Part shown: positions 43,269 to 63,454 of the stretch, piece after piece
Position numbering within the stretch: position 1 is the stretch's first letter
Layout: each line of letters starts with the position of its first letter
Origin: a virus
Strand: one strand, 5' to 3'
Length of the DNA: 64,000 bases
Virus record (IMG/VR): IMGVR_UViG_3300035053_000267
Coordinates: 1-64,000 of that record
Made by a program: the position numbers and the translations under genes
The notes under the pieces: generated by a model
Seen by the model: the letters and a program-made list of their open reading frames with translations, nothing else
What the model was told of the DNA's origin: nothing
Databases searched by the model: none

Positions 43269-45116
43269 CTAGTACTCACCTTTTGTGTATAGTTTTTTTC
43301 CAAAATCCTTACCCTGAACCAGAGAAGGAATATATGATTCGCTGTGAATCTTAGACTCTCTGCCTCTATGGGCGGCTTCAAGAAGATTATCTTTTAAATA
43401 AAAACCACCAAGTCTGGCCTGCCAGTCTGGAGTTTTAGCAAGATTTTCCAAAGCTCTAAGCATAAAAGAATTGAACGGCGGTGGATCGTCATGGGCTTCC
43501 ACATATTTAACATTATGTTTTTTAAGTTTATCCAATACAGGTTTAGTAATGCGAGTACCTATAGAGTAGTGCAATACAGGCTTTTCAAGATACTTATTAG
43601 AGGCCGTACTTACAGGCAAGTGTCTGGTACCATACCTGGGCTTATATTTTCTCTCTACCGACGAGTATTCCAATATGTCGCCAGGTAAACCCGGAACTCC
43701 ATCAATATCATTTACATGAACATGATTAACCAGACCCCTGGCTACCAGCTCTACATTGCGCCTGTTTATGTTAATGCCCTGATCTGTATACGCTTTTTTA
43801 AATAAACGTATAAATTCCCTTCTGCCTTCACCAAGCCCCTTGTACTTAACAAGATCCGACGGATTAGGAATGCCGGTTGACAGAACATCTCCGGAGTAAA
43901 CCCTGTCACCTTCTTTTACCACAGGATCAAAACCCTGATTAATATGGTGCTTTTGACCGCTTACATAAATATACTTGCCCCCCTGAGGAGAATCTTCAAT
44001 TTTAGTCACTGTACCGTCTTTTGATGAGACAGCAGCAGCTCCCCTGAAAGATTTAGGAACCTGTATAAGCTGATTAACAAGCTCAAATCCACTTGGCTCG
44101 TCCCCTTTTTTCTCCTTATCTATGCGTCCACCCTGGTGCTTAACATTAAGAGCCATCTGAGTCGTGGGCTCAGCAACTGCCTGTGCAGCTGACATACCTA
44201 CGTTCTCACCGATATCAGGAAATCCTCCTTTTTCCCGTATTCCGGCACACCTGGAACAGACTCCTGCGGCTGCATTGCATGTCACAGGGGATCTTACGAC
44301 TATCTCATCATCCTCTATACTGTCCAACACTTCAGGAGTTATAACAGTACCGGCAGGATAGTCGCCATATTGTTTAGCAAGAAGAGCTCCTAAATTGTCT
44401 TTGTCCTCTCTATCGACCACCATACCCCTGTCGGTCTTACAGTCGTTCTCAGTGACAACCAGTCTATGTGCAGCCTGCTTTAACTGTTTTCCATAAAATC
44501 CTGTATCAGCTGTTGCTATTTTTGTAGATAGAAGTCCTTTTCTGGCTCCATACGCCCCGGCCCAGTACTCAGCAGGATCCAGACCCTCGCTATAACTCCT
44601 CAACATAGGTATAGGCACTACCCTGTCTTTATTGTCAGCCACTAAAAGATTTCCAACAATAATGCTCCGCATATCAGAAAGCTTTCCCCTTGCTTTAGAC
44701 ATGACCTGCTCGGCAAAAGAGTTACCACTGGCTGCTGACTCGTCAAACATGGTTTTCTGAATGGCATCCTGGTTCTTAAGAATGAGACCGACAATGGCTT
44801 TATTTTTTTGATCGTCAGTCAGCCTGGGAGACTCTGACACTTTTTTAATATCTCTTTTGAGCCTGTCTATCAGCATCCTGGTTTTAGGGGGCTTGGCCAG
44901 ATCGTCTATAGACAGACTGACACCTGTCTCGTACGCTACCTTTGCACCTAGACGATGAAGGTCCTTGGTGGCCTTACGGTACGCGTCCTGACTCATTTCT
45001 CTTTCCATACGGTCGAGAACATCTTTTAAATCATCTGAAGTAAGAGAAGTATAGTCTCTGTACTCAGAGGGTAAGGCCTGATTGAATATAACTTTTCCAA
45101 CAGTAGTTTTAATCAT
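43269..45116 (-). CDS. rpoC: RNA polymerase beta' subunit, C-terminal half
   Basis: TTVGKVIFN, bridge helix GARKGLLSTKIATADTG, RSPVTC..GVCSRC, trigger loop GMSAAQAVAEPTTQMALNVKHQGG. Confidence 0.93.
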   Translation of the reverse strand: MIKTTVGKVIFNQALPSEYRDYTSLTSDDLKDVLDRMEREMSQDAYRKATKDLHRLGAKVAYETGVSLSIDDLAKPPKTRMLIDRLKRDIKKVSESPRLTDDQKNKAIVGLILKNQDAIQKTMFDESAASGNSFAEQVMSKARGKLSDMRSIIVGNLLVADNKDRVVPIPMLRSYSEGLDPAEYWAGAYGARKGLLSTKIATADTGFYGKQLKQAAHRLVVTENDCKTDRGMVVDREDKDNLGALLAKQYGDYPAGTVITPEVLDSIEDDEIVVRSPVTCNAAAGVCSRCAGIREKGGFPDIGENVGMSAAQAVAEPTTQMALNVKHQGGRIDKEKKGDEPSGFELVNQLIQVPKSFRGAAAVSSKDGTVTKIEDSPQGGKYIYVSGQKHHINQGFDPVVKEGDRVYSGDVLSTGIPNPSDLVKYKGLGEGRREFIRLFKKAYTDQGININRRNVELVARGLVNHVHVNDIDGVPGLPGDILEYSSVERKYKPRYGTRHLPVSTASNKYLEKPVLHYSIGTRITKPVLDKLKKHNVKYVEAHDDPPPFNSFMLRALENLAKTPDWQARLGGFYLKDNLLEAAHRGRESKIHSESYIPSLVQGKDFGKKLYTKGEY

Positions 45117-45807
45117 GCTGTTCAGCCCCCAGGGTTCCCAGAATCCCACCGCTGATAGCACTGTACAAAAGCTCAGGCCACATATATGTGTGTTTGGCTC
45201 TATTAAGAGTTTTTCTGTACTTTACTCTATCTTTAGGCGGCAGATTCATTTTACGAAGTTTATCAATAGCTATTTGAGTAGCTTGACTTTCATTTATGTA
45301 TCCCGGAGTATTAACCAGAGCCTGTACGGCAACGGAAGCAAGAGGTCCGGTCCAAGGCTTGCCGGTAATCCTGCCGGCCGCATAGCCGGCAATAGGACTA
45401 AGACCCGTTAATAGCGAAAAAAAAGGCTTAAGTTTTTTCTGATTAAACCTGGATAAGCCTGGAGTTTTCTCTATAGACTGATGCCCAAGCTCATGAGCAA
45501 TAACGCCTAAATTACGAAAGGAAGGATCATAGGCCACTATGCCGCTATTATGATAGTTTTCAGGCAGCCCAATCTGTTTGGCGCGATTAGGAGCAACATA
45601 CATGGCATTATTCAGGCCGGGAATAGAGACAGCCTCCATCCCCGACCCTTCCATCAATTTGTCAATATCTTTTAAACTGGCTTTAGGCAAATCCCTCATC
45701 GCTGAGTCTACATACGCTTTAGACGCAGTATTAATGCCGTATCCAGCAGCCATAAGAGCAGCAAGAGTTCCGACATCTTTCAGAGTGATTTTAGCCTTTT
45801 TACGCAT
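45109..45807 (-). CDS. Zn-metallopeptidase-like membrane/virion protein
   Basis: AHELGH...NESQA. Confidence 0.65.
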   Translation of the reverse strand: MRKKAKITLKDVGTLAALMAAGYGINTASKAYVDSAMRDLPKASLKDIDKLMEGSGMEAVSIPGLNNAMYVAPNRAKQIGLPENYHNSGIVAYDPSFRNLGVIAHELGHQSIEKTPGLSRFNQKKLKPFFSLLTGLSPIAGYAAGRITGKPWTGPLASVAVQALVNTPGYINESQATQIAIDKLRKMNLPPKDRVKYRKTLNRAKHTYMWPELLYSAISGGILGTLGAEQHD

Positions 45808-45808
45808 T

Positions 45809-46084
45809 TTATTTTCCTAGAATGACGTCAGCAAGATCCACTTTAAGCTTAACAATTTTACGATCAATCTCTGAAAGTATATTATCACACTTATCAGCTT
45901 CATTAAGATACCTGACCTGAACATCTAGAACATTGCTCTTGCGCTCTAATAGATTATTGATCTCAACATAATAATAGGTTAAATCTTTAACATCGTTGCA
46001 CTGTGCTGGTTCTTTGTCTTTACGCCCACAGGTCTTTTCAATTTCCAGCAACGTTTGCTCTAATTCGTCTAGGTTTAAAAACAC
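45809..46084 (-). CDS. Hypothetical coiled-coil protein
   Basis: GTG start with GAGG RBS. Confidence 0.55.
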   Translation of the reverse strand: MFLNLDELEQTLLEIEKTCGRKDKEPAQCNDVKDLTYYYVEINNLLERKSNVLDVQVRYLNEADKCDNILSEIDRKIVKLKVDLADVILGK

Positions 46085-46098
46085 TGTAATCTGCTCCT

Positions 46099-46746
46099 CT
46101 AATTTAGTTGTTTTTTTAACTTGTTCTGAATCTTCTTCGTCTCTTTTTGAAACCTGGAAAGCATATTGCTTCCTGTCTCTGTACCTTTATAGTGATTATA
46201 CCATTTCATAAACTTGCCAGGTTCTTTTCCTCCATTTATATTTAAAGCATGCTGTTTAAATACCGGCTCAGCTCCTTCGGCATACTGTCTGACCCTATTA
46301 ACATAGTTTAACGTCTCATCAGGCAGTTTTCTGTATTCAGGACTTGTCTTAAAGGCCTTTTGAAAAGGACCGTAATTATACTTTTGCAAGGCTACTTCAG
46401 ACGTATTCTGTTTATCTATGTTAAAAGGAGACTCAGCAGTAAGCCCTCTAAGCCTGTCCACGTACTGAAGTGCTGCTCTGGCCGTCGTAGCGGCATCCCT
46501 GTTATTAGTGACACCATACTGATTTAAAAGCGGATTGCTCATTTGAAACATACCATACCGATTACCTGCTTCATTTAAAGCATTAGTATTCCAGCTACTC
46601 TCAGCTCCACCCATGCCGCCAGCAATAAGTTTAATATCGGAAACAGGGGCATTAGACAGGCCGCGTATCGCGTTATTAATGGCAGCGGTCTGCCCAAGAG
46701 TACGCGGCGTATACTTACTAGAGCCTCTGAATATATTAGTCGGCAT
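46099..46746 (-). CDS. Lytic transglycosylase (SLT-like)
   Basis: AESSWN, YGMFQM, KYNYGP, ETLNYV. Confidence 0.8.
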   Translation of the reverse strand: MPTNIFRGSSKYTPRTLGQTAAINNAIRGLSNAPVSDIKLIAGGMGGAESSWNTNALNEAGNRYGMFQMSNPLLNQYGVTNNRDAATTARAALQYVDRLRGLTAESPFNIDKQNTSEVALQKYNYGPFQKAFKTSPEYRKLPDETLNYVNRVRQYAEGAEPVFKQHALNINGGKEPGKFMKWYNHYKGTETGSNMLSRFQKETKKIQNKLKKQLN

Positions 46747-47111
46747 TATTTATTGAAAAGTTTATTAGCACCGGCCGCCCCTAAAAAAGCACCAAGACTT
46801 GCCGGAGCCCAACCATATCTGACTGGAACAGCCGCACCAAGACCGGCACCGGCAACCGCCCCTAAAAGCGGAGCTACTTTATTATCAGGTTTTTCCTCTA
46901 CCTCTTTTTCCCTGGCATCCATAAGAGCCTTAGCCGCCAGCAACCTGCTGATGCCAGCCGGCTCATGGGGCTCATCAATATACCTACCATAAGGAACAGT
47001 TCTGTTGGAGTCGGTATAACCAGTTACGCGAGGGTACCCATATGAAAAATTTATAACGGGCTGAGGGTGGGCCGTGCCTATATTATTCTGTATGTACGCT
47101 TTCTTATTCAT
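46746..47111 (-). CDS. Gly-zipper putative virion protein
   Basis: GAVAGAGLGA...GAFLGAAG. Confidence 0.55.
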   Translation of the reverse strand: MNKKAYIQNNIGTAHPQPVINFSYGYPRVTGYTDSNRTVPYGRYIDEPHEPAGISRLLAAKALMDAREKEVEEKPDNKVAPLLGAVAGAGLGAAVPVRYGWAPASLGAFLGAAGANKLFNK

Positions 47112-47135
47112 AATTAACCTTTTACCTTATTCCTA

Positions 47136-48497
47136 TTATTCTTCATGCAGCGATATAAAAGACGGAGCTCTCAGCGCCCCGCTGTTAAACACATCCTGAT
47201 AATTAACTCTGGCCTTTCTTCCAATATATGCACTAGGATCGTTGGTCATCATTTCTCTGTCTTCATCAGAAAATCCAGTTCCAACTATGCCCTTTACGGG
47301 TCCTCCCGGCTGAGTACTGTACGCAAATCTGCTGTTCATATCCTTAAATTTACCACTTCCAGTAAGAAGATCTTTTATATATACGTCCATCTCCGGACGG
47401 ATCTTTACCTTAATGGGTTTACCTCCTGAAAAAGGATAAGATATCACACCTTCTCTAGTTCGTAAATTACTTTTATCCAGTATCTTATTCCACAAATTAC
47501 GTTTTTCTTCCCGAGTATATGCATATTCAGGCTCATGTAGCTGATTCCCCATGCCTATGGCTTTAATAAAGTCCTGTATAATGGCTCTGCGCTTATTAAC
47601 CGGCATATCATACCATTTATCGGTATTGGTTATTTCCCCGAAAAGAGCCATGTGAGGCTTTATGCTCTCGACAGCCATTCTTTTTCGTGCGTTTTCCGGC
47701 GTAGAGTTCAGCAAGGCAGATAAAGTACTATGAGGTACAGCTTTATTGTTCTTTGAGGCCCATAATTCACCTACAAACTGTCTGTTCCTGTATTCCGCAG
47801 GAACAGTATCCGGCTGTTTAAACCTGAGACGATCCGTATGAACTATAGGTTTTCCTGACTTATCAGTTCTATAACTCATAATTCTTACACTATCGTTCAT
47901 AACGGATAGAAGAGCCTGTGCTCCATCTATTTTTTCACTTAAAACCGAGTCATTATTAAACAGTTTGTCTATTTCAGCGGCAGAAACCTGTTTATATTTA
48001 GGTTTTTTATAGTCCACGGGCTTATTAGGAGTCGTGTTAACTACAAGCCACGATCCCCCTTGAGTCTGTTTGTCCCTTTTTGACCCACTACCGGCCGTAT
48101 CTTTCATTCTCAGCATAATAAAATACTCGGGGTTCTTTTTATCAGCTGTAAGAAACCTTATATAGTTATTACTGGCATCAGTAATGATAATCTTGCCATC
48201 ACGCTCTTTTTTTACTGTACCTTTACCGTATCCGGACGGTATTTTGCCTTCAAAGTCCTTATACGAATACCCGTGGACTGGTTGCTGATACCAGACTCTT
48301 TTGTCTCCCGGTGCAGGTATCTCCTTCTTTGTAGCGAAGGAATACAGCCCTGTACTTGGCGTACCGAACCTTACATCTCTGTGTTTACCGGCTCGCTGGG
48401 CATCATGTTGCTGCACAACGAAATCAACAGGATTACCTGTAGGTAAATCAGAAAATCTTCCAAACCGTCTATAATTATAAGAAGTCTTAGAAAGCAT
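47136..48497 (-). CDS. LigD 3'-phosphoesterase domain fused to ATP-dependent DNA ligase
   Basis: QQHDA..HRDVRF, H.YSYKDFEGKIPSGYGKGTV; EKIDG, EGVI, VGTGFS, LRAPSF. Confidence 0.85.
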   Translation of the reverse strand: MLSKTSYNYRRFGRFSDLPTGNPVDFVVQQHDAQRAGKHRDVRFGTPSTGLYSFATKKEIPAPGDKRVWYQQPVHGYSYKDFEGKIPSGYGKGTVKKERDGKIIITDASNNYIRFLTADKKNPEYFIMLRMKDTAGSGSKRDKQTQGGSWLVVNTTPNKPVDYKKPKYKQVSAAEIDKLFNNDSVLSEKIDGAQALLSVMNDSVRIMSYRTDKSGKPIVHTDRLRFKQPDTVPAEYRNRQFVGELWASKNNKAVPHSTLSALLNSTPENARKRMAVESIKPHMALFGEITNTDKWYDMPVNKRRAIIQDFIKAIGMGNQLHEPEYAYTREEKRNLWNKILDKSNLRTREGVISYPFSGGKPIKVKIRPEMDVYIKDLLTGSGKFKDMNSRFAYSTQPGGPVKGIVGTGFSDEDREMMTNDPSAYIGRKARVNYQDVFNSGALRAPSFISLHEE

Positions 48498-48553
48498 AAA
48501 AAACCTAGATTTATGCTTTATTATACGTCACCACCGGGATTAAATAAAGGATA

Positions 48554-48769
48554 TTATTTCCTGGATTTTTTTAACTCCTTCTTTAATCTGCATTTAATCA
48601 CCTCAGTAAGAGAAAAACGGCTTTGCATCCATTGATTCCACGTTATCTCTAAAGAAAGGCGCTCATCTGTATCTAAAAAATCAGCGAAGACACATATAAC
48701 CTCGCCTACCAGGCTGACACCTATATTAGATGCACCTAAATCATGTTTTAATTTAAATAGATCTTCCAT
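48554..48769 (-). CDS. Hypothetical protein
   Basis: Packed ORF. Confidence 0.5.
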   Translation of the reverse strand: MEDLFKLKHDLGASNIGVSLVGEVICVFADFLDTDERLSLEITWNQWMQSRFSLTEVIKCRLKKELKKSRK

Positions 48770-49076
48770 GTCTAAACAAGTGTCTCGATTTGAAAAACGA
48801 TATCCATTGGTTGCGTGACAAGCAGGCCGTTAATAGAGCTCCATTTTTGTACACTCTACAGACTGCTTCTCCATAAACAGTATCGCGCTCTTTCATAATA
48901 TAATAGATATTGCCAAACGGATCAGCCCACATCCCATGCTGCTCAACATTAGTGCCTCTAGAAAACAGATGAGCCACATGACCTGCACATATATTAAAAA
49001 AATTCACAACCATAAAAGAACAACATAAGCCTATCATAACAAGACAGGGAACACACAGCAAATAATACATATTCAT
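48753..49076 (-). CDS. Hypothetical membrane protein
   Basis: Hydrophobic N-terminus. Confidence 0.5.
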   Translation of the reverse strand: MNMYYLLCVPCLVMIGLCCSFMVVNFFNICAGHVAHLFSRGTNVEQHGMWADPFGNIYYIMKERDTVYGEAVCRVYKNGALLTACLSRNQWISFFKSRHLFRHGRSI

Positions 49077-49086
49077 TACAATCTCG

Positions 49087-49464
49087 TTAAAGCATTATAG
49101 TTGACTTCTTCTTTTTAGAGTATTTTTTTCTAGATGCTTTTTTTCTTAAAACCTTGTCGGCTGCTTTTACTGACTTAGTACTCTCTTTATCTTTAGTGTT
49201 CTCAGTTTTTACAGGCTTACTCTTTTTAACTTTAAACTTAATGGCCGCTCCATCGCCGTACACTATATCCTTTTTCAAAAGGGAATACCTGAGATCCCCT
49301 CTCCTGTCATAGGGCTTAACATTAGCTCTTATAGGCATCCCATTGCGTACAGCAATATCAGCTTCAATATCTTTAAGAAGTTCACCAAACTGATAGGCAA
49401 CATCGCAGTCTGTAAAAGGACACGTTGGGTTCATTTCAATTACTAAATTCAAAAAATGTTTCAT
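49087..49464 (-). CDS. Hypothetical protein with Lys-rich tail
   Basis: Basic C-terminus. Confidence 0.55.
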   Translation of the reverse strand: MKHFLNLVIEMNPTCPFTDCDVAYQFGELLKDIEADIAVRNGMPIRANVKPYDRRGDLRYSLLKKDIVYGDGAAIKFKVKKSKPVKTENTKDKESTKSVKAADKVLRKKASRKKYSKKKKSTIML

Positions 49465-49715
49465 AGGTCAAACTCATAAATCCTTTCAGAATTAAGCAGT
49501 AAACTTTTAACTCCATCTTCCGTAATATTATTAAAATAAAAAACCGTAGTCTTCCTGGATATGTTAGTAGTGGAAAGAACATCATACAGTTTGTCTATTT
49601 TTTCATTCTGTTTTTTTATGTGATCCATTATATACAGGGTACTGACCGATGCGCTTGGCGTAGTACACCCGAAACATAAAATAAAAATCAATACTATAAA
49701 GTTTTTGATATGCAT
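49461..49715 (-). CDS. Putative lipoprotein
   Basis: LILCFGC lipobox-like segment; AGGAG RBS. Confidence 0.5.
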   Translation of the reverse strand: MHIKNFIVLIFILCFGCTTPSASVSTLYIMDHIKKQNEKIDKLYDVLSTTNISRKTTVFYFNNITEDGVKSLLLNSERIYEFDL

Positions 49716-49736
49716 ATCAAACTCCTTTTTTAAGTG

Positions 49737-49813
49737 TGGTCGGAGAGGCAGGATTTGAACCTGCGACTTCGTGGTCCCAAACCACGCGTACTGCCAAACT
49801 GTACTACTCTCCG
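49737..49813 (-). tRNA. tRNA-Pro(TGG)
   Basis: Full cloverleaf; CGTGG-TTTGGGA-CCACG anticodon arm; GTTCAAATC; encoded CCA. Confidence 0.93.
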
Positions 49814-49821
49814 ATTCATAG

Positions 49822-49895
49822 TGGGCCCGGCAGGATTTGAACCTGCGACCAGAGAATTATGAGTTCCCTGCTCTAACCAGCTGAGCTACAGGCCC
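49822..49895 (-). tRNA. tRNA with CAT anticodon (Ile2 or Met)
   Basis: GGGCCTGTAGCTCAGCTGGTTAGAGC, loop CTCATAA, GTTCAAATC; no encoded CCA. Confidence 0.9.
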
Positions 49896-49921
49896 GAACA
49901 AATAACAAACTGAGTTCATTA

Positions 49922-49951
49922 TATTATGCCACTAGCATCCTTTTGGTTTAA
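49922..49951 (-). promoter_or_regulatory. Putative phage promoter for the tRNAs
   Basis: TTAAAC-17-CATAAT, with AGTGG. Confidence 0.55.
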
Positions 49952-50682
49952 GATTAACCTTTTTTTCCATCCTGGAAAGATCAGGACGCATACCAATAAA
50001 ACGACCAATATACTCTAAACACCTGGCATCTGTCAACTCAGCAAAAGCTACTTCTAATGTATTATCAGGATAAAGCTTTTTGAATCTCTCCCACTGGCTT
50101 CTGGTTTCCTCCCAATAAAACTCCAGAAAAAATCTAAGTTTATCGAAATCCGGTCTGCCATCAGTGTACAATGAAAAACCATCTATATTTATTCTATTCA
50201 AAACACACCGATCAGTAGGATCAAAAAATGACCGCTGACGCAGCCCTTTTAAAAAAAGACCTGAAATGCTTTGATCCCCTTCTTTTAAGACGGAGCCTGT
50301 GCCTTTTAAGAAAAGAATTAACTGTATCTTCTTTAGGCCTTTCTATATAAATCACTTTATAATCCATATCAGACATTTTAGGCAGAGCCCAGCATGTCCA
50401 CTTCATTTTAAGATCAGTTACAAAAACCCTACCAGCCTCTCCAACTCTAGATACAATCGAGTTAACAGTACGTCTCTGTAAATCAAAAGCCTCATTAGAA
50501 TCAAGATCATTAAGTTTTTTCAGCTTAGAAATATAAAACAGTTTAGACCTCATATTCTCGTGAAAAGTGACCCCATCTTCTGTTTTAAATACTCTGGTTT
50601 TACTCCACGCGCCGTGACCAAAACAGGACGACAGAAACGCAGTCCCCGTTCTTCCAGTTGTGAACAAACAATTAATCTGCAT
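49932..50682 (-). pseudogene. Sulfotransferase-like P-loop gene split by a 1-nt frameshift
   Basis: TTGRTGT, FHE, IYIER..DTVNSF; removing one base from the run at 50247-50257 joins both ORFs. Confidence 0.55.
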
Positions 50683-50807
50683 AAAACACCTCACATATAG
50701 TTTAAAGCACCACAAAAAAAAAGAGCAAGGACGCTTCATCCCTACTCTTTAATGCCAATAGCTTGTCTGCCTACAGCCAACGAGCAGACAGCAAAAAGCG
50801 AAATTTA

Positions 50808-51479: not shown

Positions 51480-51485
51480 GACTAT

Positions 51486-51971: not shown

Positions 51972-52001
51972 TGGATCGCCTTTTTTACATGTACTGTACT
52001 G

Positions 52002-52220
52002 CTACAGTTTAATACTTTGAACTTCAGGAATTTTATTATACCCTAAAATGTTTAAAATGTCATTAAATCCTTTTTCTCCAGCAGTTTTAAACCAGACGGC
52101 GTCATTTACTTTCATTCCAACCGCAATAGGTTCTCCACTATCTAGTGCCACTATCACATTATTAGCTCCACTTAAAACTACAGGCTCCTTATTACCGCTA
52201 GTTTGAGAAAAAATAATCAT
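52002..52220 (-). CDS. Hypothetical protein
   Basis: Coupled ORF. Confidence 0.6.
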   Translation of the reverse strand: MIIFSQTSGNKEPVVLSGANNVIVALDSGEPIAVGMKVNDAVWFKTAGEKGFNDILNILGYNKIPEVQSIKL

Positions 52221-52885: not shown

Positions 52886-52922
52886 ACCATTTATTTTACG
52901 AAAATCGAACGGGCTCCTCTCT

Positions 52923-54444: not shown

Positions 54445-55101
54445 TTACTGGAAATAATGAAGCTTAAATATATCGTATTTTCTGGTAAGATACGGCACTC
54501 CATCACTATTAGAATACAGCCATGCCAGAACAATCTGTTTAGACTTCTTACCAACACACAATGAATCTGTGTACTCCCCGACAGACCTTATCTTAAAATC
54601 TGAAGCAACGTCCGCAGACGTAAACTCATTAAACACAGCCATGACCTCTTTGATAAATAAAGGCCGGCCCAATAAAGACATGTAATACCTATTTACACTT
54701 CCATCTCCGTCCATATATCCTAGAATAAACTTTTTACAGGGATCGGCGTAGGTCCTTATGTGCTCAGGAAAAGTATAATTATACGTTTTTCTAGGAATTA
54801 TATTAAATTTTCTTAAATCCTTAGAGATCTGATAAGAAGTAAATCTCAATCGGCATACATGGCACTCAGTGCCTTTAACTGTACGACAATAATCCTCCAC
54901 CTCATTTTCAGCCTGCACAAAATCTCTGAATTTAAGAAGATGATCAAAATCAGCATAAGCCAGCTCAAGACCGATCCTGGACTTTTTGGATACAGTCCCG
55001 TCGGCCGCTAAAAACCCGGCCCAATATAACGCCTCTTCAGTATAAGGATAACTGAAGACGTTTTCTTTTACGTAACCTCTTTTTGACATTCTTTGATGCA
55101 A
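54445..55101 (-). CDS. Free-standing LAGLIDADG homing endonuclease
   Basis: YWAGFLAADG and FILGYMDGDG. Confidence 0.85.
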   Translation of the reverse strand: MHQRMSKRGYVKENVFSYPYTEEALYWAGFLAADGTVSKKSRIGLELAYADFDHLLKFRDFVQAENEVEDYCRTVKGTECHVCRLRFTSYQISKDLRKFNIIPRKTYNYTFPEHIRTYADPCKKFILGYMDGDGSVNRYYMSLLGRPLFIKEVMAVFNEFTSADVASDFKIRSVGEYTDSLCVGKKSKQIVLAWLYSNSDGVPYLTRKYDIFKLHYFQ

Positions 55102-55298
55102 TCCATGAGGTTTCTAGCCAGACGTTGCTGCTGCGTAACATGCTCCTCTATGGCTTTGATAAACAGAGAAGACCTGGAATCCAAATTAACATCATGATCA
55201 TGAATAATATCAGCCATATGACGAAGCATATAAGCCACATTAAACATATCTACATATATGGTTACCAGGTCGCGATAGTTACAAGCCATAATCCACAC
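55068..55298 (-). CDS. Small hypothetical protein
   Basis: ORF; likely start MACNY. Confidence 0.45.
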   Translation of the reverse strand: MWIMACNYRDLVTIYVDMFNVAYMLRHMADIIHDHDVNLDSRSSLFIKAIEEHVTQQQRLARNLMDCIKECQKEVT

Positions 55299-55305
55299 CT
55301 ATTAG

Positions 55306-56477
55306 TTGACTTATTATTCATAGTTGCATATTATATAAAAATGATTAGAACGGTGTCAATAACGGTTCCTGTAAAAGCAGAGGAGTACTTACCTCTGCTT
55401 AAAGAGGCGTCTGCTATTTTCAATCAACACGTTGAGTGGGCGTTCACTGAAGGAACATATAATAAAAACAAAGCCCACCATGCACTGTACCGTACTATTC
55501 GTGAAGAGTATCCTGAGTTCCCGTCAGCACTAATTCAGTGCGTGCGCGACACCGCAATGGAGGCGATTAAACGAGACAAGTTCAGACACAGACCCTCAAA
55601 GAAGGAAACTTCCGGTATCCGACTCAATAAACTCCTAATTTCAGTTAAAGGGGCTTGGGTATCTTTAGTACATCCAGGAAAGCGTTTTAGGTTTAAAGCC
55701 TCATTTCCTGATTTCTTCAGAGAAGTAATTGAGAATGGAGAGTTCAGGTCCGCTACGCTATGTTACTTGAAGAAAGGTAACAGGATTGTTTTAAATCTAT
55801 CTTACCAGTTAAACAACCCTGAATCCTCTAAAGGCTCCAAGGTATTGGGAGTAGACCGTGGAATTTACAACTTAGCTTCTACTTCAGATGGAAAACACTA
55901 TTCTGGATCTGAGGTAAGAGCACAGCAACGAAAGCACTTATACAAGAAGAGACAGCTCCAAGCAAAAGGTACGAAGTCTGCAAAGAGAAAACTTAAGAAG
56001 ATCTCTGGTAGATACGCACGGTTCAGCAAGGACGTCAACCACTGTATAAGCAAGAGCATTGTATCCGAAGAAGGTCTAAAGACGATAGTTCTAGAGGATC
56101 TAAAAGGGATACGGTCTCAGAGAAGAGGCAAGAAGTTAAACAAGTGGTTGAGCTCGTGGAGCTTTTACCAACTTCAAACCTTTCTTAAGTACAAAGCAGA
56201 GGCCCTAGGAATCAGCGTGGATTACGTAGACGCCAGGTACACCTCTCAAAAATGTAGCTCTTGTGGTTACACAAGCAAGGACAACAGAAATAAACACTCG
56301 TTTACCTGTATATCCTGTGGCCACTCTGAAAATGCCGATACGAATGCTGCTAAAAACATTAAACAGAATTATCTTATCTCCTTACTTGATAAGGAGCAGG
56401 CTGCTGTCAATCAGCCAAATGTCTCACAGGATCTCCTGTAGGGACAAGCTCACCAGCTTGTCTAGTGAGCAGTTGAC
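55306..56477 (+). mobile_element. IS200/IS605-family TnpB-only element
   Basis: TTGAC at the left boundary; right-end hairpin GCTCAC...GTGAGC ending AGTTGAC; no tnpA. Confidence 0.75.
55341..56441 (+). CDS. tnpB: RNA-guided endonuclease TnpB
   Basis: RuvC GVDRG, VLEDL, ADTNAA; Zn finger CSSC..CISC; promoter TTGACT-17-TATTAT before a leaderless ATG. Confidence 0.92.
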   Translation: MIRTVSITVPVKAEEYLPLLKEASAIFNQHVEWAFTEGTYNKNKAHHALYRTIREEYPEFPSALIQCVRDTAMEAIKRDKFRHRPSKKETSGIRLNKLLISVKGAWVSLVHPGKRFRFKASFPDFFREVIENGEFRSATLCYLKKGNRIVLNLSYQLNNPESSKGSKVLGVDRGIYNLASTSDGKHYSGSEVRAQQRKHLYKKRQLQAKGTKSAKRKLKKISGRYARFSKDVNHCISKSIVSEEGLKTIVLEDLKGIRSQRRGKKLNKWLSSWSFYQLQTFLKYKAEALGISVDYVDARYTSQKCSSCGYTSKDNRNKHSFTCISCGHSENADTNAAKNIKQNYLISLLDKEQAAVNQPNVSQDLL

Positions 56478-56676
56478 TGTATCATTCATAAAACCAAGGT
56501 CAAGCCAATAGCTAAAAAGAAGCAGCCTAGCAGGCGAATCTATTCAGCTGCTTCTTAGTGTCTACAGGGTGCACTGTAAAACAAACGGGCAGGAGAGAAT
56601 TCCATAGTGGATGCCTCACTCCCCTGCCCGTCAAAGCGCCTGTGTGTATTGTCCTCATGGATATAGGGGCGCATAT

Positions 56677-56773
56677 TATTATTCCACTCCAACACACCTG
56701 ATTTAACCTCAATTATAATTCTTTCGCTCTTAAATCAGCACATTATTATTCCACTTAACTGCGGCATAATTAA
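56677..56773 (-). promoter_or_regulatory. Two tandem copies of the phage promoter motif
   Basis: TTAAAT or TTAATT -17- AATAAT, both preceded by AGTGG. Confidence 0.5.
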
Positions 56774-57045
56774 TCAGGAGGCTTGACACATCGCCACCCA
56801 TTTCTCCACAAAAAACGAGCTACATCGTATGTGGTATAGTCCCCGTTTTTATTATGAATGAACGTATCAGGCACCCCTATACCGTGTAACGCTTCATGTA
56901 GCTGAGAATGAAGAGCTTTTATAGAATTACCTTTAAGAACCAGCATGTTTACAGGCTCATCGCTTGTTCTATCGTCAGTGAGCCCTTCTATGGGCTCCAC
57001 AAAACATATATTATACTTAACCCCATTAAATGTGTGCGTCTTCAT
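56770..57045 (-). CDS. Small HExxH protein
   Basis: LHEALH. Confidence 0.55.
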   Translation of the reverse strand: MKTHTFNGVKYNICFVEPIEGLTDDRTSDEPVNMLVLKGNSIKALHSQLHEALHGIGVPDTFIHNKNGDYTTYDVARFLWRNGWRCVKPPD

Positions 57046-57358
57046 AGCCTGCTCTTAAAGTGACAGGAAGATAATGCAGTAAAAACAACCTGACCGAAGC
57101 TTCACCTATTTTTTCAGTTAAACGCTTTAAAATAGCTTTTATAGGTGCAGTATTCATAAATACTTCTTCAACTTCTTCAGTCCATGCAAAATCGGACGCA
57201 CGTATATTCTTCTTATTTTCCGGAAGATCAAACTGATCCCATACGGCCCGGTTAAGCATGGAAAAGAGCTGGTCTGTACTTTTATTCCTGACGGACCTGC
57301 GATCAGGCAGTTTAGACAGGTCCACTGTATCAATAACTTGAGAAAATCTACTGCTCAT
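57026..57358 (-). CDS. Hypothetical protein
   Basis: Coupled ORF. Confidence 0.6.
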   Translation of the reverse strand: MSSRFSQVIDTVDLSKLPDRRSVRNKSTDQLFSMLNRAVWDQFDLPENKKNIRASDFAWTEEVEEVFMNTAPIKAILKRLTEKIGEASVRLFLLHYLPVTLRAGYEDAHI

Positions 57359-57639
57359 AAATGCATCCCCTTTGTAGTAAAATCATCTTTATGAACCAGT
57401 TTAAACCCGGAAAACTGCGCACTGTCATTATACACAGGAACCAACAGAATCTCAGCCCCACTCCTGTCTTCCAAATGACCAGTAAGAGAGGAATTATAAT
57501 CTGTTAAGAACACACTGGCATGTTTATCATACTCTATATCGCAAACGCTTTTAAGATTTATCACACGATATATTTTAAAAATAAATATCTCCGGCGGAAA
57601 CGGAGAATACACTTTGCCACATTCCGCAATAATACTCAT
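57355..57639 (-). CDS. Hypothetical protein
   Basis: Coupled ORF. Confidence 0.55.
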   Translation of the reverse strand: MSIIAECGKVYSPFPPEIFIFKIYRVINLKSVCDIEYDKHASVFLTDYNSSLTGHLEDRSGAEILLVPVYNDSAQFSGFKLVHKDDFTTKGMHL

Positions 57640-57647
57640 GATGCCCT

Positions 57648-59045
57648 CTAAATTTTTACACTGGGAACAGCAAATCCATCAGAAGATATGAAAGTATCAG
57701 CCCCCTCCACAGATAAACCATATCCACACTCCGTTTTACCCGAACTCTCAACAGAATATACTTCAGACCAAAAAATCCTATCATTCATAACTATATCTTT
57801 CCACCACGATAAGACAATACCTTTGTGCTTATTTATGTGCTTTATAATTTTAACAGCAGAGTCCCTGTTAATGAGACCGCTATAGCTGTTTAAAAGAACA
57901 ATACGATAAAGATCACTGTAACCCTTTTCATGCATGGACCCCGTTGCAGCTTCAAGAACTTCAAAAGGCAGCGGAACGCTGTCGTGTTTAACAGCTGTGT
58001 TTGCATAACTACAGGACCCGAAAGCATAGTCAGACTGTAAAAAACCTTTATTAACACATATGTCGCACTTATTTATTGCTATACGCCATCCTGACCGTCT
58101 GGACCCGGCCTCAACGTAAAACATATTGTTTTTAATACCAAGGTGGTCCAGAAAAGTACGAAAAGATCTGGCGAATCTAAAGTGACGGGTAAACATAATA
58201 AAATTATCTGTATTCAGCTTATGAGAATCCATCATTCCTGAAACGAATCCCCACTTAAAGTCTGAACCGGCCGTTACGGCAATGCTGGGTATACTTCTTT
58301 TAGCAAAAGAACTTTTAATCTTATCCAGAATCCAACGTATAAACTCTCCTTCAGAAACAGATATGCCGCGTCGTTTGAGATAGGTTTCACATTTATAATT
58401 AAGGATACTGGTGTTTATTTTAGTTGAGTCTATGTTATTATCGACATACCCTGAAAGAAACCCAAAGATATATCCAAGCTCAGAATCCAAATCAAGATTA
58501 GTTCCTACATACAGCATATCACAGTAAATATGAGTATTAACCGGCTCTGCTACATGTCCAACTATAGGAACATAAAGACCAACTGCCTTGTCTGGAGACA
58601 CAGTACAGAAATTGGCCGCATCAGAGTTAAACCCATAAACAGCTTTACTATTGTCTGTTGTAAGTATTTGGTGACCGGTAGACAGATTCACCAGAAAAAC
58701 ATTCTGCTCAGAATACCTTCTGAAATAAGACACTTTATGAAGGCTTAAACCAGAAGCCCCGGAGTATGAACCGACATACAACTCAGGACAGGCACTATAT
58801 GCCTCTACATTTCTTAAAACTCTACAATCATCTTTTGCTCTGGGAAAATCAGCTAGATCAATTATAAACTTCCTATATGCAGGAACGTCGGACACACACT
58901 CACGCAGTTTCCAATGATCCTCATCCCCCCACCAATACTGGCTCCACTTACTGTTATTAAAATAGTGCCCGACAAGATCAGCAGGCTTTACATACACTGC
59001 TGCATCTGAAAAGTGGCAACCATAAGCTTTATCTTTGTTTGTCAT
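57648..59045 (-). CDS. Orphan degenerate intein-like (Hint plus LAGLIDADG) protein
   Basis: CHFSDAAVYV (block A), STGHQILTTDN (block B), GYIFGFLSG and GFVSGMMDS, YGLSVEGADTFISSDG (blocks F/G) lacking the terminal HN. Confidence 0.7.
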   Translation of the reverse strand: MTNKDKAYGCHFSDAAVYVKPADLVGHYFNNSKWSQYWWGDEDHWKLRECVSDVPAYRKFIIDLADFPRAKDDCRVLRNVEAYSACPELYVGSYSGASGLSLHKVSYFRRYSEQNVFLVNLSTGHQILTTDNSKAVYGFNSDAANFCTVSPDKAVGLYVPIVGHVAEPVNTHIYCDMLYVGTNLDLDSELGYIFGFLSGYVDNNIDSTKINTSILNYKCETYLKRRGISVSEGEFIRWILDKIKSSFAKRSIPSIAVTAGSDFKWGFVSGMMDSHKLNTDNFIMFTRHFRFARSFRTFLDHLGIKNNMFYVEAGSRRSGWRIAINKCDICVNKGFLQSDYAFGSCSYANTAVKHDSVPLPFEVLEAATGSMHEKGYSDLYRIVLLNSYSGLINRDSAVKIIKHINKHKGIVLSWWKDIVMNDRIFWSEVYSVESSGKTECGYGLSVEGADTFISSDGFAVPSVKI

Positions 59046-62000
59046 TTAATTATAACAGGCTGGTCTACTTCAACTTCGCCTCTGTTATACGCATTAACGG
59101 CTTGCTGAACTGTATCAAACACTATAGGTTTCTTAGTTAAATCTTCTTTATGCGTGGCCCTGTGAAGACCTATGAGAAATTCGTGACTTGGAGCGTATTG
59201 TACTTGAAAATCAGACATTTTACGTATGTTCTTAGATGGAAGCATTTTTTCCTTTGCTTCCTCAATAGCCTCATCAGACACTGTAACATGAAAATTCATG
59301 GTATCCCCATCAAAATCGGCGTTCATGCCTTTGCATATCTGCGGGGGGACCTTGAATGAGTGACCGCGAGTCAATACGGGCTTGGCGGCCAATATGCTGT
59401 ACTTATGAAGAGCTGGAGCCCTGGAATACAGTAAAGGCCTATGTTCCATTTCTTTTAAAAGAGCCCTCTCGGCCTCAGGGGTTTTATTCATATACATTCT
59501 GATTGCATCGGCTTTAGATCCTTTACTGCCTATATCACGAATAAGACGCCGTATAACAAAAGGCTTGTACAGCTCCCACGCTTTTTCCTCCGGAAGCCCA
59601 ACCTCGTCTATGTCGAGATTAGGATCAGGGGAGATCACAGCTCTACCGGATAAATCCGTAGTAGTCGATATAAGTGTACGTTGAAACGTACCGGACTTGG
59701 GAGACGCTCCGAACACTTCTTTTAAAAGACCTTTAATACCTTGCGCTTTTCTTTCTTTTTTAACCGGGGTTCCGAGCCCTGTCACAGCTTTAAAGTTATC
59801 ATATACATTAAGAGCAGCTTCTCCTCTCATATCCGGAGTCAGCTTATCCTTCATCTCAGAGTAGTTCTGATTGGCATGCATTAAATCTTTATACAGAAGA
59901 TTCGAACCAGCTACCATCTCAAACTTGTTAGTAGCTGTAATAGGTCTGTATACAGGAGGAAGAACAGCCACTTTAGATACAACCAAGTCTTCCGGCTGTA
60001 CGCCCATTCTCCTTAAACCATCTAGATATTTCATTTTTTTAGCTGCAAGATTTTTGGCAGTTTTACTGCTGGTTGTATTAAACAGATGCTCCTGCGCCCT
60101 ATACATTTTATCAATATCTATATGTGACAAAGCTTTTTTAATCGCAGCAGATCCAGTGCCGACATCAGGAATAGACTCCTTCTCGGCAATAACATTTCTA
60201 TACTGCTTTTGAGTCAGTCCCAGAAGGTACCGTATAGGGTCTTCAAATACCGGCTGGGGCATAGGCACACTCAAAGTTATGTGCCCAAACCTGTTTCCTC
60301 CGTGGCCCCCGGTAATGCCCCTGTCAAATAGACCGCCTTTTACCGGCTCCATGGACTGCTCACCCATAAGGCCTTTAGCGTAATTCTGCTTCCACTTTAC
60401 TGTTTCAGGACTCTTTATTTCTCCGCTGCTTATAGCCTCCACATCTCTATCTGTCATGGCAGCCAAGTGAAGATTATTACCTTCTCCCTTTACATTTATT
60501 CCGGAAGCCTGAAGAGTTGCTATAAACTTTTTATACGTTCCCGGTACCTTGGGGGGAGGAGGATTTATGCCCAGCATTACAGCATTCCAATAATCCTGAT
60601 TCTGCTGTCCTTTTATGTTGCGTATATCTTTAATGTTTTTAACAGCCCCGTGAGCGAGCAGGGCCTCCATCTCAAGCATACCAATTCTTTTTGGATTATC
60701 CTCGTCTATCCCTTTAGATGGAGACCCTTCTGATGTGTAAGAACCAAACGCCCTTCCAGACTCTTTCGATTCTGAAGTATGTTGAAGTTTGAGCATATAA
60801 GGAAACCCAACAAAAACATCTTTAATATTCTTATCTGTAGCCGGATCATATATCGTTTCTTTATCTTTAACACCGTGCTTACTCATTTCACTCTTAACAA
60901 AGTCTATGAGACTGTCGTCATTAAAGCCGCGTACATAATAGGGCTTGCCTCTTTTTCGAGCTATTTTAGCCAAAACAGCTTCATACAGCTGGGCAGGATT
61001 GTGCCTTGATATCACACCAAGAGGATTAAGGAGCATCTCCAATGTTTCACCGGACTCATCCTTAGGCATCTGATCATCCGGTATTATTTTACTCACGGTA
61101 CCTTTATTGCCAAAAAATCCACTAAACTTATCACCAACCTGAACCGGCATATATGTCTTAACAGAGATTTTAGTGCCGCCATCATCATTCCAGGTATCAG
61201 TGACAATGCCGGGAGTGTCGTGTTCCCATTCCACTGAAGAATCAGAGAAATCTCTACTCTTACCCCTATACAGCATGCCAGATCCTTTGGACGTCTTCTG
61301 CTTCACAGCCAGAATGAGAGGATCACCTTTCTCAACTACGGAACCAGGCGCAACAACTCCTGATTTATCTATTTTATCCAGCTGCTTTTTTGAATAGACA
61401 CTGGGGAAAACAGACATATGCTTAAGCTTGCTTTGAGTAGTAAACTTATCCCTGTCCAGTTTATCTGTGTACATGTGCTCAGAAGCAAATTTCTTAGCAA
61501 GTCCCTCCGATATGACTATACCATCTTCGTATGAATAGCCTTTATAAGGCAAATACCCGGCACGAACATGAGCTCCAAGAGCAAGATCACCAGACTTGTC
61601 CGTATAGTTACTCGATGCAATAATCTGCCCCGGCTTAAGAACATCCCCCGGCTGAACTAAAGGCTCATTACTTATATAGGATTTTCTGTTGTACGGCATG
61701 TTATTGTACAGCTCAATGGTTTTAGTTTTACCATCAGAAGTCTGTATGACCACTTCATCGTCAGTTACCGACCTGACAACCCCTTCAGTATCCGACCTAA
61801 CCACTCCTGCGTATTTTCCAGAAAAATTAAAGAAATCAACCCCATCTTCGTCAACAGGTCTCACCAGTGGTGCTTCTCTGTTTTTAACAGAAAGAGCCTG
61901 ATTAATGTATTTACTCCCCATAAGCAGTCGACCGCCTTCAATAGCTGAAAGCATGGGAACAAGGTTTGAATTAAGATTGAATTGTCCAGAGGCACTGTAC

Positions 62001-63454
62001 AGCTCGTATGGTACTTTTTCCGGATCCATCATCTTCATTTGACCATTACTTATGCATTTTACTTTTTTGCCAGTTTTAGCTGCCTTTTCGTGTTCGCCCG
62101 GAAAAGCAATAGGCATGCGGGAGACTACCTGGGGCGGCAAATAAATGCTCTTTCCGCTTTTAGAGTCTTTCAACCTGGTGTAAAGCTCACGATCTACGCC
62201 TTTATACGTGTTCCAGGCGATACGCCCATCTACCCCGGGATTAGAGGACTCAGGAGACCTTATAGGGTCTATAAACCCAAAATGCGACGGCTGCAAAGCT
62301 CTGGCCTCATCAGGAACCGCTTCAGCACTGGGCAGGCCTCCGACTCCCATTCTGGTTATCCTAAGGTTTTGATCAATGGCATCCATAGGATTAATCTCTT
62401 CCAGTGGAGAGGCAACTCCGGAAAGATAAAACACACTGTCAACATGAGAATCCAGAGCGCTGGGAGAGATTTTTTTCAAACTTTTATTCAGAGTAGCCTT
62501 CCACAGCAACTTCCGGGCAAGCATGCCACTGTCTTTAGATATTCTCTCTGCAAAAAAATCCTCTGGTCCCCATGTCTCCTGAAAAGCCAGAGAGTCCCTA
62601 TCATCGGTGTCTGCTTTACCTTTGGATATATTGACAAGTTTTTCAGACGTCTTGAGAAGAACTTCAGGAGTCACATTAGTATACGGACTGCCGAGAGTTA
62701 CCCCGACAACCTCAGGATCCAGTTTAAGCTTAGAAAAAACTTCCAACCAGTCCTTATCCGTAACGTCCTCCCCAACAGACTTCTTAGCTCTGGACTGAGT
62801 AAATTTGTTCCACGCTTTATTTAGAGTTTTTACATCCTCATTCTCAACAAGATTTACCCTTAAAAGCTCAGGACCCCAGTGTTTCTCCATATCCCTGTCT
62901 TTAATACCCATCGCTTTAAGTATCGGGTAAGCTTTTAAATTCGCCTGACCCACTTTTAGTTTAAATACACCGCTTGAAGGCTCCATAAACATTCTAAAGG
63001 ACGGTCCGCCTGACAGGATATTGAAATGAGCCTCTATATCCCCGTTATTTTTCTTACGAGTGAATATACCAGAACGAAGTCGCATCTGATTGGCTATGGT
63101 ATACTCATTGCCTCCTACTATGTAAGTGCCTCTCTGGGTAAGATATGGGACGTTTATAACTGTGGTTCTTTTCTGGTCTATAGGTTTATTGGTAGCCTTA
63201 TCCACCAGGGTCCAGGTCCCTTTAAGAGGCCTGTGAAGAGAAGACCTGTTAAACAGTGCCTTCTTCTGCTCCTTTAAAGAAAAATCACGAGTATTACCAT
63301 ACTCTAAATCATTAAGCTCCAGCCTGTATTTGGAATTCTCAAGAGGAAACCTCTCCTTCAATGCCTGTAGAGTGCCACCATACACGGCCTTTCTAGTAGT
63401 GTCAAAATCCAGAAAATCCCTGACACCGACTGGTAAGTTAACTCCACCACGCAT
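59042..63454 (-). CDS. rpoBC: RNA polymerase beta fused to the N-terminal half of beta'
   Basis: beta motifs SPES.NPG, GYSYEDG, GDKFSG..GNKG, YMLKLQH; beta' motifs GHITL, LPPVYRP, SGRAVI, RAPALH, NADFDGD. Confidence 0.95.
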   Translation of the reverse strand: MRGGVNLPVGVRDFLDFDTTRKAVYGGTLQALKERFPLENSKYRLELNDLEYGNTRDFSLKEQKKALFNRSSLHRPLKGTWTLVDKATNKPIDQKRTTVINVPYLTQRGTYIVGGNEYTIANQMRLRSGIFTRKKNNGDIEAHFNILSGGPSFRMFMEPSSGVFKLKVGQANLKAYPILKAMGIKDRDMEKHWGPELLRVNLVENEDVKTLNKAWNKFTQSRAKKSVGEDVTDKDWLEVFSKLKLDPEVVGVTLGSPYTNVTPEVLLKTSEKLVNISKGKADTDDRDSLAFQETWGPEDFFAERISKDSGMLARKLLWKATLNKSLKKISPSALDSHVDSVFYLSGVASPLEEINPMDAIDQNLRITRMGVGGLPSAEAVPDEARALQPSHFGFIDPIRSPESSNPGVDGRIAWNTYKGVDRELYTRLKDSKSGKSIYLPPQVVSRMPIAFPGEHEKAAKTGKKVKCISNGQMKMMDPEKVPYELYSASGQFNLNSNLVPMLSAIEGGRLLMGSKYINQALSVKNREAPLVRPVDEDGVDFFNFSGKYAGVVRSDTEGVVRSVTDDEVVIQTSDGKTKTIELYNNMPYNRKSYISNEPLVQPGDVLKPGQIIASSNYTDKSGDLALGAHVRAGYLPYKGYSYEDGIVISEGLAKKFASEHMYTDKLDRDKFTTQSKLKHMSVFPSVYSKKQLDKIDKSGVVAPGSVVEKGDPLILAVKQKTSKGSGMLYRGKSRDFSDSSVEWEHDTPGIVTDTWNDDGGTKISVKTYMPVQVGDKFSGFFGNKGTVSKIIPDDQMPKDESGETLEMLLNPLGVISRHNPAQLYEAVLAKIARKRGKPYYVRGFNDDSLIDFVKSEMSKHGVKDKETIYDPATDKNIKDVFVGFPYMLKLQHTSESKESGRAFGSYTSEGSPSKGIDEDNPKRIGMLEMEALLAHGAVKNIKDIRNIKGQQNQDYWNAVMLGINPPPPKVPGTYKKFIATLQASGINVKGEGNNLHLAAMTDRDVEAISSGEIKSPETVKWKQNYAKGLMGEQSMEPVKGGLFDRGITGGHGGNRFGHITLSVPMPQPVFEDPIRYLLGLTQKQYRNVIAEKESIPDVGTGSAAIKKALSHIDIDKMYRAQEHLFNTTSSKTAKNLAAKKMKYLDGLRRMGVQPEDLVVSKVAVLPPVYRPITATNKFEMVAGSNLLYKDLMHANQNYSEMKDKLTPDMRGEAALNVYDNFKAVTGLGTPVKKERKAQGIKGLLKEVFGASPKSGTFQRTLISTTTDLSGRAVISPDPNLDIDEVGLPEEKAWELYKPFVIRRLIRDIGSKGSKADAIRMYMNKTPEAERALLKEMEHRPLLYSRAPALHKYSILAAKPVLTRGHSFKVPPQICKGMNADFDGDTMNFHVTVSDEAIEEAKEKMLPSKNIRKMSDFQVQYAPSHEFLIGLHRATHKEDLTKKPIVFDTVQQAVNAYNRGEVEVDQPVIIK

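Follow-up and report, generated by a model that had tools for sequence, protein, structure and literature searches.

The RpoBC fusions of Helicobacter and Wolbachia are cellular proteins of about 2900 amino acids (aa), with an intact beta-prime that retains its zinc-binding domain, and they operate with alpha, omega, and a host sigma factor. Cyanobacteria and plastids divide beta-prime into two polypeptides, gamma/RpoC1 and RpoC2. Multisubunit RNA polymerases (RNAPs) of phages have been studied almost only in the phiKZ/AR9 group, whose enzymes are very divergent and sigma-less. The paper on Salmonella phage Arash lists two proteins as beta and beta-prime and describes neither a fusion nor a split (PMC10585845). 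Here, we describe an RNAP encoded by an uncultured virus as two chains, a beta-beta'N fusion and a separate beta'C, in a window comprising the first 64 kb of IMG/VR record IMGVR_UViG_3300035053_000267. The record is a linear viral contig of 111,747 bp, with an estimated completeness of 57% and nearly all of its genes on the minus strand; it comes from an Arash-like phage whose full genome we estimate at ~190 kb. Our literature search found no paper describing this fused-and-split architecture, and the family is absent from reviews of jumbo-phage and viral two-barrel polymerases (PMC7824862 and PMC10770324, as well as the available part of PMC7598289).

The longer of the two polymerase genes, chain 1, is open over 1470 aa down to a stop codon at 59042-59044, and its main features are as follows.

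59042..63454, minus strand: beta-beta'N fusion gene (protein P0001, 1470 aa), from Pfam, matches in the Protein Data Bank (PDB), alignment to Salmonella rpoB/rpoC, and family alignment A1.
60443..60505, minus strand: fusion junction, where the end of beta runs into beta-prime at residue ~19 with almost no linker; conserved in the fused and split clades defined below.
60272..60334, minus strand: deletion of the beta-prime zinc-binding domain (Escherichia coli residues 67-98, four Cys), with a short Gly-rich stretch in its place, from the alignment.
59303..59323, minus strand: NADFDGD Mg-binding catalytic motif, residues 1378-1384, uninterrupted here, from the alignment and motif map.

The beta part corresponds to about residues 1-993 (window 60476-63454), while residues 994-1470 are equivalent to E. 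coli beta-prime from position 19 to about 551. An initial annotation, made from the sequence alone, had read this open reading frame (ORF) as beta motifs followed by beta-prime through NADFDGD. This is confirmed by the position of the motif and by the order of the Pfam domains, with Rpb2_2, Rpb2_3, and Rpb2_6 at residues 173-907 (4e-53 for Rpb2_6) preceding Rpb1_1 and Rpb1_2 at 1114-1403 (5.5e-24 for Rpb1_2). Among solved structures, chain 1 matches bacterial beta (E 4.6e-72) and bacterial beta-prime. For residue-level comparison, 10 family members were aligned using MAFFT with Salmonella rpoB/rpoC and the sequences of four other bacteria. The two catalytic lysines of beta lie in GDK...GNKG (residues 774-785), which aligns with Salmonella and Bacillus, and the catalytic residues are invariant in family alignment A1. 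The zinc-binding domain is also missing from the fused-clade members shown in the alignment, and the whole of chain 1, 1470 residues, contains only two cysteines.

The initial annotation had placed the remainder of beta-prime, from its TTVG motif onward, about 14 kb downstream, and we measured a gap of 13.9 kb. Chain 2 and its immediate surroundings are as follows.

43269..45116, minus strand: beta'C gene (protein P0002), 615 aa from the ATG at 45116, in an ORF that is open from a GTG at 45161; from Pfam Rpb1_5, PDB matches, and the motif map.
45109..45807, minus strand: 232-aa ORF with a HELGH metalloprotease-like motif, its end overlapping the start of beta'C; unmatched in Pfam and PHROG.
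43244..43259, minus strand: terminator-like hairpin directly after the beta'C stop, from a hairpin search.

The complete ORF (43269..45161, minus strand) begins at the TTVG motif and matches Rpb1_5 at 7e-27. Its true start is likely to be ATG 45116 (M16), because this codon overlaps the stop of the upstream gene and relatives align from about residue 12-20. Solved-structure matches are to bacterial beta-prime (E about 1e-47 to 1e-48). Chain 2 contains the bridge helix and trigger loop as well as the second beta-prime zinc site, whose residues are exactly the four Cys of the protein. Both chains are intact with all catalytic elements conserved, and these two genes are the only recognizable RNAP on the contig. 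At the sequence level, these findings confirm a two-barrel, pared-down bacterial-type polymerase in two chains. Hairpin plus T-run sites resembling terminators number 27 in window 42000-62000 versus 14.6 ± 3.5 in shuffled sequence, i.e., about twice as many, an excess that fits an enzyme recognizing intrinsic terminators.

Searching 5.8 billion proteins, we found chain 1 relatives in more than 120 protein clusters at E=0, with 39-53% identity and mostly 1437-1496 aa long, some of them on contigs of up to 225 kb. A separate scan of viral contigs, using the alignment as query, returned 247 relatives of chain 1. An assembly error at the fusion point, a concern that accompanied the initial annotation, is ruled out by the recurrence of the junction in >120 independent clusters, in 247 viral contigs, and in the cultured phages Arash and D69. 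Only four deposited phages have the fusion, Salmonella phage Arash and Vibrio phages D69, D148, and D181, and each of them has a separate beta'C. The other concern, that the genes might sit in a cellular rpoBC operon, was dispelled by homologues of terminase, portal, and major capsid proteins on the contig, which is viral, and by the absence from the contig of ribosomal-protein genes adjoining the polymerase genes. The best 80 bacterial loci are ordinary rpoB-rpoC pairs with 23-29% identity; therefore, none of these is a prophage copy or a cellular source of the phage family. Some relatives (P0024, P0033, P0034, P0035, and P0037) have N-terminal GNAT, SET, 2H-SAK phosphoesterase, DUF5661, or LNS2 modules.

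How did beta-prime come to be divided? We mapped both chains onto 80 loci and compared layout and spacing, which showed that the loci fall into two groups. In one, mostly 37-56% identical to the window and also including L013 (34% identical, with a 1.0-kb gap), chain 1 stops at the same residue as here. In the other, which is 27-36% identical, beta'N and beta'C form one frame with no stop, giving single-chain ORFs of 2008-2207 aa without inteins and of up to 3008 aa with them. These single-chain phage forms (e.g., L014, L030, L048, and L040) share the junction, the missing zinc-binding domain, and the catalytic core with chains 1 and 2. They differ in that beta-prime is unbroken and one ORF encodes everything, whereas here beta'C is a separate gene.

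Trees were computed from a query-anchored alignment using FastTree (81 rows) and IQ-TREE with LG+G4 (53 rows). Both agree on a branching in which bacteria come first, followed by a phage type with separate genes in the order beta-prime, beta, then by the fused L040, and finally by the split clade (support 88-90) and its sister fused clade (93-99). The split clade holds this window, L034, Arash, L013, and L051. Within it, the window and L034 form a sister pair (support 99) in a clade of 20 members (support 100). The phylogeny with cellular and phage RNAPs that the initial annotation had called for thus places the window in a phage clade, outside bacteria, in both trees. Fused beta and beta-prime and a missing zinc-binding domain characterize the whole family. 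Because neither the fused clade nor any outgroup has a broken beta-prime, the break is, on these trees, derived and needs only one event. A candidate second independent split, in L056, was rejected. In-frame stops in L056 and its sister L035 are exclusively TGA codons. Of those that fall within the alignments, two are at family tryptophan columns and another is at a mixed Leu/Trp column; reading through TGA gives L056 an ORF of 2019 aa. This points to L035 and L056 being phages recoded with TGA=Trp that have a single-chain polymerase; the L056 record is 210 kb and 100% complete. The separate-gene type is represented by a second phage lineage (L057-L069; Rhizobium phages RHph_TM30 and relatives; Vibrio phage Va2) with gene order beta-prime then beta and a compact beta-prime of about 880 aa, which is sister to the fused family in both trees.

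The separation of the two chains is much larger here than in relatives, where the portal gene is usually followed by a few genes and chain 1, and then, after ~1 kb, by chain 2, an 800-aa gene, and three conserved genes. Spacing is 0.9-3.6 kb in 18 of the 21 split-clade relatives that were scored, and all 21 span 0.9-5.4 kb; counted by locus, the distance from chain 1 down to beta'C is 0.9-1.7 kb for 13 loci and 2.2-3.6 kb for four, and two loci have about 5 kb. All genes of the family order are found in the contig, in the same order and on the same strand, with two blocks added. The first is the 13.9 kb between the chains, which contains the intein-like ORF, TnpB, LAGLIDADG endonuclease, tRNAs, and ligase listed below as well as a MYG1-like gene and unknown genes. 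The second, 19.6 kb long, separates chain 2 from the 800-aa gene. Of 30 neighboring ORFs scanned with Pfam and PHROG, most gave no match. The features recognized between the chains are as follows.

57648..59045, minus strand: free-standing intein-like ORF, 465 aa, homologous to inteins that in relatives lie between NADFDGD and the following T.
55083..56441, plus strand: TnpB/OrfB_IS605 gene, on the opposite strand (Cas12f1-like_TNB 9.6e-24, OrfB_IS605 4.4e-10).
54445..55101, minus strand: free-standing LAGLIDADG homing-endonuclease-like gene (LAGLIDADG_3 4e-6).
52002..52220, minus strand: small ORF with a homologue directly upstream of beta'C in L006 and L021, from locus comparison.
49737..49895, minus strand: tRNA-Pro(TGG) and tRNA-Met(CAT), from a tRNA search.
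47136..48497, minus strand: ATP-dependent DNA ligase with a LigD-type phosphoesterase domain, whose position varies in relatives; from domain and locus comparison.

The 13.9-kb spacing is local and secondary and comes from inserted accessory and mobile genes. A second TnpB/OrfB_IS605 gene is found at contig 68726-69775 (minus strand), beyond the portal gene and about 5 kb upstream of chain 1. Window 24000-40000, which is included in the second block, has a G+C content of 0.48-0.54 versus 0.41-0.43 and many short ORFs on both strands.

Directly behind chain 1 comes the 465-aa intein-like ORF. Its start overlaps the chain 1 stop (ATGA) in a different frame, and it aligns along its length, with 23% identity, with the in-frame inteins found right after NADFDGD in L034 and L045. 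It has neither the terminal Asn nor the first LAGLIDADG acidic residue, and its Cys10 may match intein Cys1 by eye, a pairing that MAFFT did not make. In an exhaustive profile search, most of the listed relatives, and most of the strongest, were inside proteins of >1500 aa, usually 1400-2200 residues in, and two of these (P0012 and P0023) are known chain 1 relatives; a separate search for homologues of near-equal length returned the ORF alone. We read it as an intein derivative now standing alone and not as an intein. It may be a decaying remnant or, like yeast HO, a free-standing homing endonuclease. An origin of the break at the intein site was considered and rejected, the L045 intein being at the same NADFDGD position as that of L034 and not at the split site. 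More broadly, selfish insertions concentrate in the polymerase gene of this family. L034 (locus 10001-20494), the closest relative, has five insertions of 1.0-1.5 kb, at least one of which is an intein at NADFDGD; intein and LAGLIDADG domains occur in many homologues that are 1800-2450 aa long (P0007-P0013, P0021, P0039, P0043, and others); and the polymerase gene is interrupted by a homing endonuclease in Vibrio phages D148 and D181.

Two other accounts of the divided locus have to be weighed against two functional chains separated by later insertions. The 14-kb separation might be an assembly chimera, or the split gene might be decaying and nonfunctional, and it is true that the spacing is the largest among the scored loci and that mobile elements lie within the gap. 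We consider this very unlikely, however, since both ORFs are intact with every catalytic motif present, chain 1 ends at the residue where all split-clade relatives end, flanking gene order and strand follow those of the family, base composition is even across 40-64 kb, and the halves are also spaced by about 5 kb in Arash and in two metagenomic relatives. Alternatively, trans-splicing might rejoin the halves into one beta-prime, with the intein-like ORF acting as part of a split intein. Although this ORF starts at the very stop codon of chain 1 and its relatives are true in-frame inteins of the same polymerase, it lies behind a stop codon and in another frame than chain 1, its C-terminal Asn is absent, no intein C-segment is present at the N terminus of chain 2, in none of the other split-clade loci was a homologue of the 465-aa ORF found downstream of chain 1, and the related inteins are inserted after NADFDGD and not at the split site. 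Trans-splicing is therefore extremely improbable, and two separate chains remain our reading of the locus.

As for the enzyme itself, bacterial beta and beta-prime are the best solved-structure matches (E 1e-72 to 1e-47), with cyanobacterial chains among the top ones and no phiKZ or AR9 chain among the top 60 matches that were considered; PHROG matches to jumbo-phage polymerase families are weak. By Salmonella/E. coli numbering, segments 225-344, 938-1049, and 1126-1179 of beta are absent, as are segments 1-18, 67-98, 151-179, 553-569, 943-1127, and 1377-1407 of beta-prime, the absence of 553-569 coinciding exactly with the break between the chains. NADFDGD has been retained, together with both catalytic lysines of beta, the bridge helix and trigger loop, and the second zinc site. 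The description of the enzyme as a streamlined bacterial-type phage RNAP in the initial annotation was therefore apt: lineage-specific inserts and the beta-prime zinc-binding domain are missing, and every catalytic element is kept. The rifampicin pocket is altered by the substitutions V146A, Q513S, F514P, D516E, H526Q, S531T, and I572D. Because several of the changed positions are classical rpoB resistance positions, we predict that the enzyme is insensitive to rifampicin.

We then asked with which partners such an enzyme might work. Profile hidden Markov models were searched against the six-frame translation of the whole 111.7-kb contig, which yielded no sigma factor (sigma-70 r2/r3/r4, TIGR02937, or family sigma profile A2), no alpha (PF01000 and PF01193), no omega (PF01192), and no SNF2 helicase; very divergent substitutes for alpha and omega may exist. 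What the initial annotation had noted for the window, the lack of alpha and sigma genes, thus extends to the entire contig. A search with PF00940 was uninformative because its control gave no signal anywhere. The family as a whole was surveyed in 12 contigs that are 78-100% complete by CheckV, together with Arash. In Arash and in each of the eight genomes with a completeness of at least 90%, there is one polymerase locus and no recognizable alpha. With Pfam Sigma70_r2, Arash gave two matches, and five of the 12 contigs also matched, four of these above the family cutoff. Profile A2, built from these sigma genes, then recovered sigma-like genes, in ORFs of about 245-300 aa, from six of the other seven contigs, including complete genome G003 from this window's own subclade, so that Arash and 11 of the 12 contigs, all at least 78% complete, have sigma-like genes. 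In the family sigma proteins, Sigma70_r3 exceeds the Pfam cutoff, which r4 does not reach, coming close in one of the four. Several relatives, and Arash, have an SNF2 helicase beside chain 2. In G003, the sigma gene is about 37 kb beyond chain 2; if this order holds here, the sigma gene would fall beyond the left end of the contig. As for promoters, sigma-70-like hexamers are at chance level (44 versus 42.4 expected). A phage-specific promoter motif was also sought in 41 upstream regions and by 7-mer enrichment, and this candidate was dropped since only Shine-Dalgarno sequences and T-runs were recovered.

The surroundings of the polymerase genes bear on whether the enzyme might travel in the virion, and the relevant features are as follows.

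Contig 66669-68432: portal homologue.
21197..23638, minus strand: 813-aa gene that in relatives comes directly after beta'C, weakly related to Arash virion protein gp218; from locus comparison.
16440-17888: gp222-like gene, homologue of an Arash virion protein.
7917..8864, minus strand: major capsid homologue (Arash gp226, 31% identity, E 1e-33), at the far end of the head module.

The order portal, polymerase, gp218-like, gp222-like, capsid is that of Arash, with 19.6 kb of accessory DNA between beta'C and the 813-aa gene here. Large phages usually encode packaged proteins in the head module, and GNAT, SET, and 2H-type domains are typical of injected polyvalent proteins. In mass spectrometry of Arash virions, gp206 was the most detected protein with 3516 spectra, gp216 had 1210, and the sigma factor gp10 had 467 (PMC10585845). 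On the strength of this proteomics, the head-module position, and the effector domains on relatives, packaging of the polymerase of the window in the virion is likely but unproven. The initial annotation had suggested possible packaging on the grounds that both genes sit beside putative virion genes. That neighborhood has held up, as the genes are within a portal-capsid module, and packaging itself is a reading by analogy from the three lines of evidence just named.

Our explanation for the whole, which we hold to be probable, includes the two-chain enzyme, its origin, its assembly, its use of sigma, and its packaging. An ancestor of the family acquired the beta-beta-prime fusion and lost the zinc-binding domain, and beta-prime was later broken once, at a poorly conserved loop (E. 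coli 553-569). The two chains would assemble noncovalently, like the halves of cyanobacterial beta-prime, and the covalent beta-beta-prime link would replace the alpha-dimer scaffold that is absent from the family. Promoters would be read with a family sigma-70-type factor, whose gene would lie off the partial contig. Made late, packaged in the capsid, and injected, the polymerase would make phage transcription independent of the host polymerase.

A different view is that the polymerase is real and unpackaged, with host RNAP transcribing early genes before the phage enzyme takes over middle and late transcription. Pairs of sigma-70-like hexamers are indeed found in some intergenic regions, e.g., at 55359-55330 with 12/12 matches, and the Arash virion proteome looks overinclusive, its authors allowing for carry-over of abundant enzymes (PMC10585845). 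Yet, the polymerase genes are within the portal-capsid head module in every relative examined, the family has just one polymerase locus, the Arash sigma factor gp10 was detected together with both polymerase chains, effector-type domains are fused to the N terminus in relatives, and the count of promoter-like sites is that expected by chance. We thus regard an unpackaged enzyme as unlikely, if far from negligible. Several points count against the fuller explanation that we prefer, in which the enzyme is packaged and sigma-dependent. The virion list of Arash comprises 116 proteins including ribonucleotide reductases, for which carry-over from infected cells is allowed by the authors (PMC10585845); Arash is only 31% identical, and packaging is unproven even there. 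Neither sigma, SNF2 helicase, nor another partner is present on the ~57%-complete contig, so that sigma dependence is extrapolated from relatives. Conservation is poor at the flap tip and in the clamp helices, the elements that hold sigma in bacteria, and the sigma-70-like hexamers in several intergenic regions mean that host polymerase may transcribe some genes. Finally, support for the monophyly of the split clade is moderate (88-90), in trees made from a query-anchored alignment.

Taken further, and only tentatively, the family might have the simplest known sigma-dependent RNAP of cellular type, consisting of a single chain of ~2050 aa or of two chains, without alpha or omega, with its own small sigma, carried in the capsid and able to transcribe the entire 180-200-kb genome independently of the host enzyme, with or without rifampicin. 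If this is true, the beta-beta-prime link would be what made the loss of the alpha scaffold possible. A family that exists both as one chain and as two is a natural experiment on the role of the alpha scaffold, on where beta-prime can be cut, and on minimal sigma-dependent transcription, and its compact, probably rifampicin-insensitive enzyme is of interest for orthogonal transcription. The model is testable in Arash, a cultured member. The locus also shows how selfish elements (inteins, homing endonucleases, and TnpB) gather around and inside an essential phage gene.

How does this system compare with those already described? Its beta C terminus is covalently joined to the beta-prime N terminus, as in the RpoBC proteins of Helicobacter and Wolbachia. 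Unlike a complete RpoBC fusion, it stops at 59042-59044, and beta'C is encoded 13.9 kb away. With cyanobacteria and plastids, where beta-prime is cut shortly after the catalytic barrel and its parts assemble noncovalently, it shares a similar cut, whereas beta is free in cyanobacteria and fused here. The initial annotation had put the two cuts near the same point. They are near and not identical, the phage cut (E. coli 553-569) being roughly 15-35 residues upstream of the cyanobacterial one, as estimated from hit coordinates, and the trees show that the two splits have independent origins. The architecture is already present, unremarked, in a published phage, Arash, whose gp206 (1525 aa) and gp216 match the two chains with 31% and 27% identity over 96-99% of their length. 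Arash-type phages share the beta-beta'N fusion with a separate beta'C on the same strand, the portal gene upstream, and the gp218-like virion gene downstream; Arash, a distant member, also falls within the split clade. The differences lie in the spacing of the halves (4.8 kb in Arash and 0.8 kb in D69 versus 13.9 kb here) and in the two Pfam-recognizable sigma genes and the SNF2 helicase beside beta'C that are found in Arash and not on this contig. What this analysis adds is that sister phages make the enzyme as a single chain, that the break arose once, that the family has a sigma factor of its own, and that the 14-kb gap has a local cause. Last, phiKZ/AR9-type phages also have a two-barrel phage enzyme with no alpha, a beta-prime split after the barrel, and one virion form (PMC7598289 and PMC7824862). 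They have two enzyme sets in which beta is split too, no sigma, and far more divergent sequences, whereas the phage family described here has one set, with beta whole and fused, a family sigma-70-type gene, and sequences much closer to those of bacteria.

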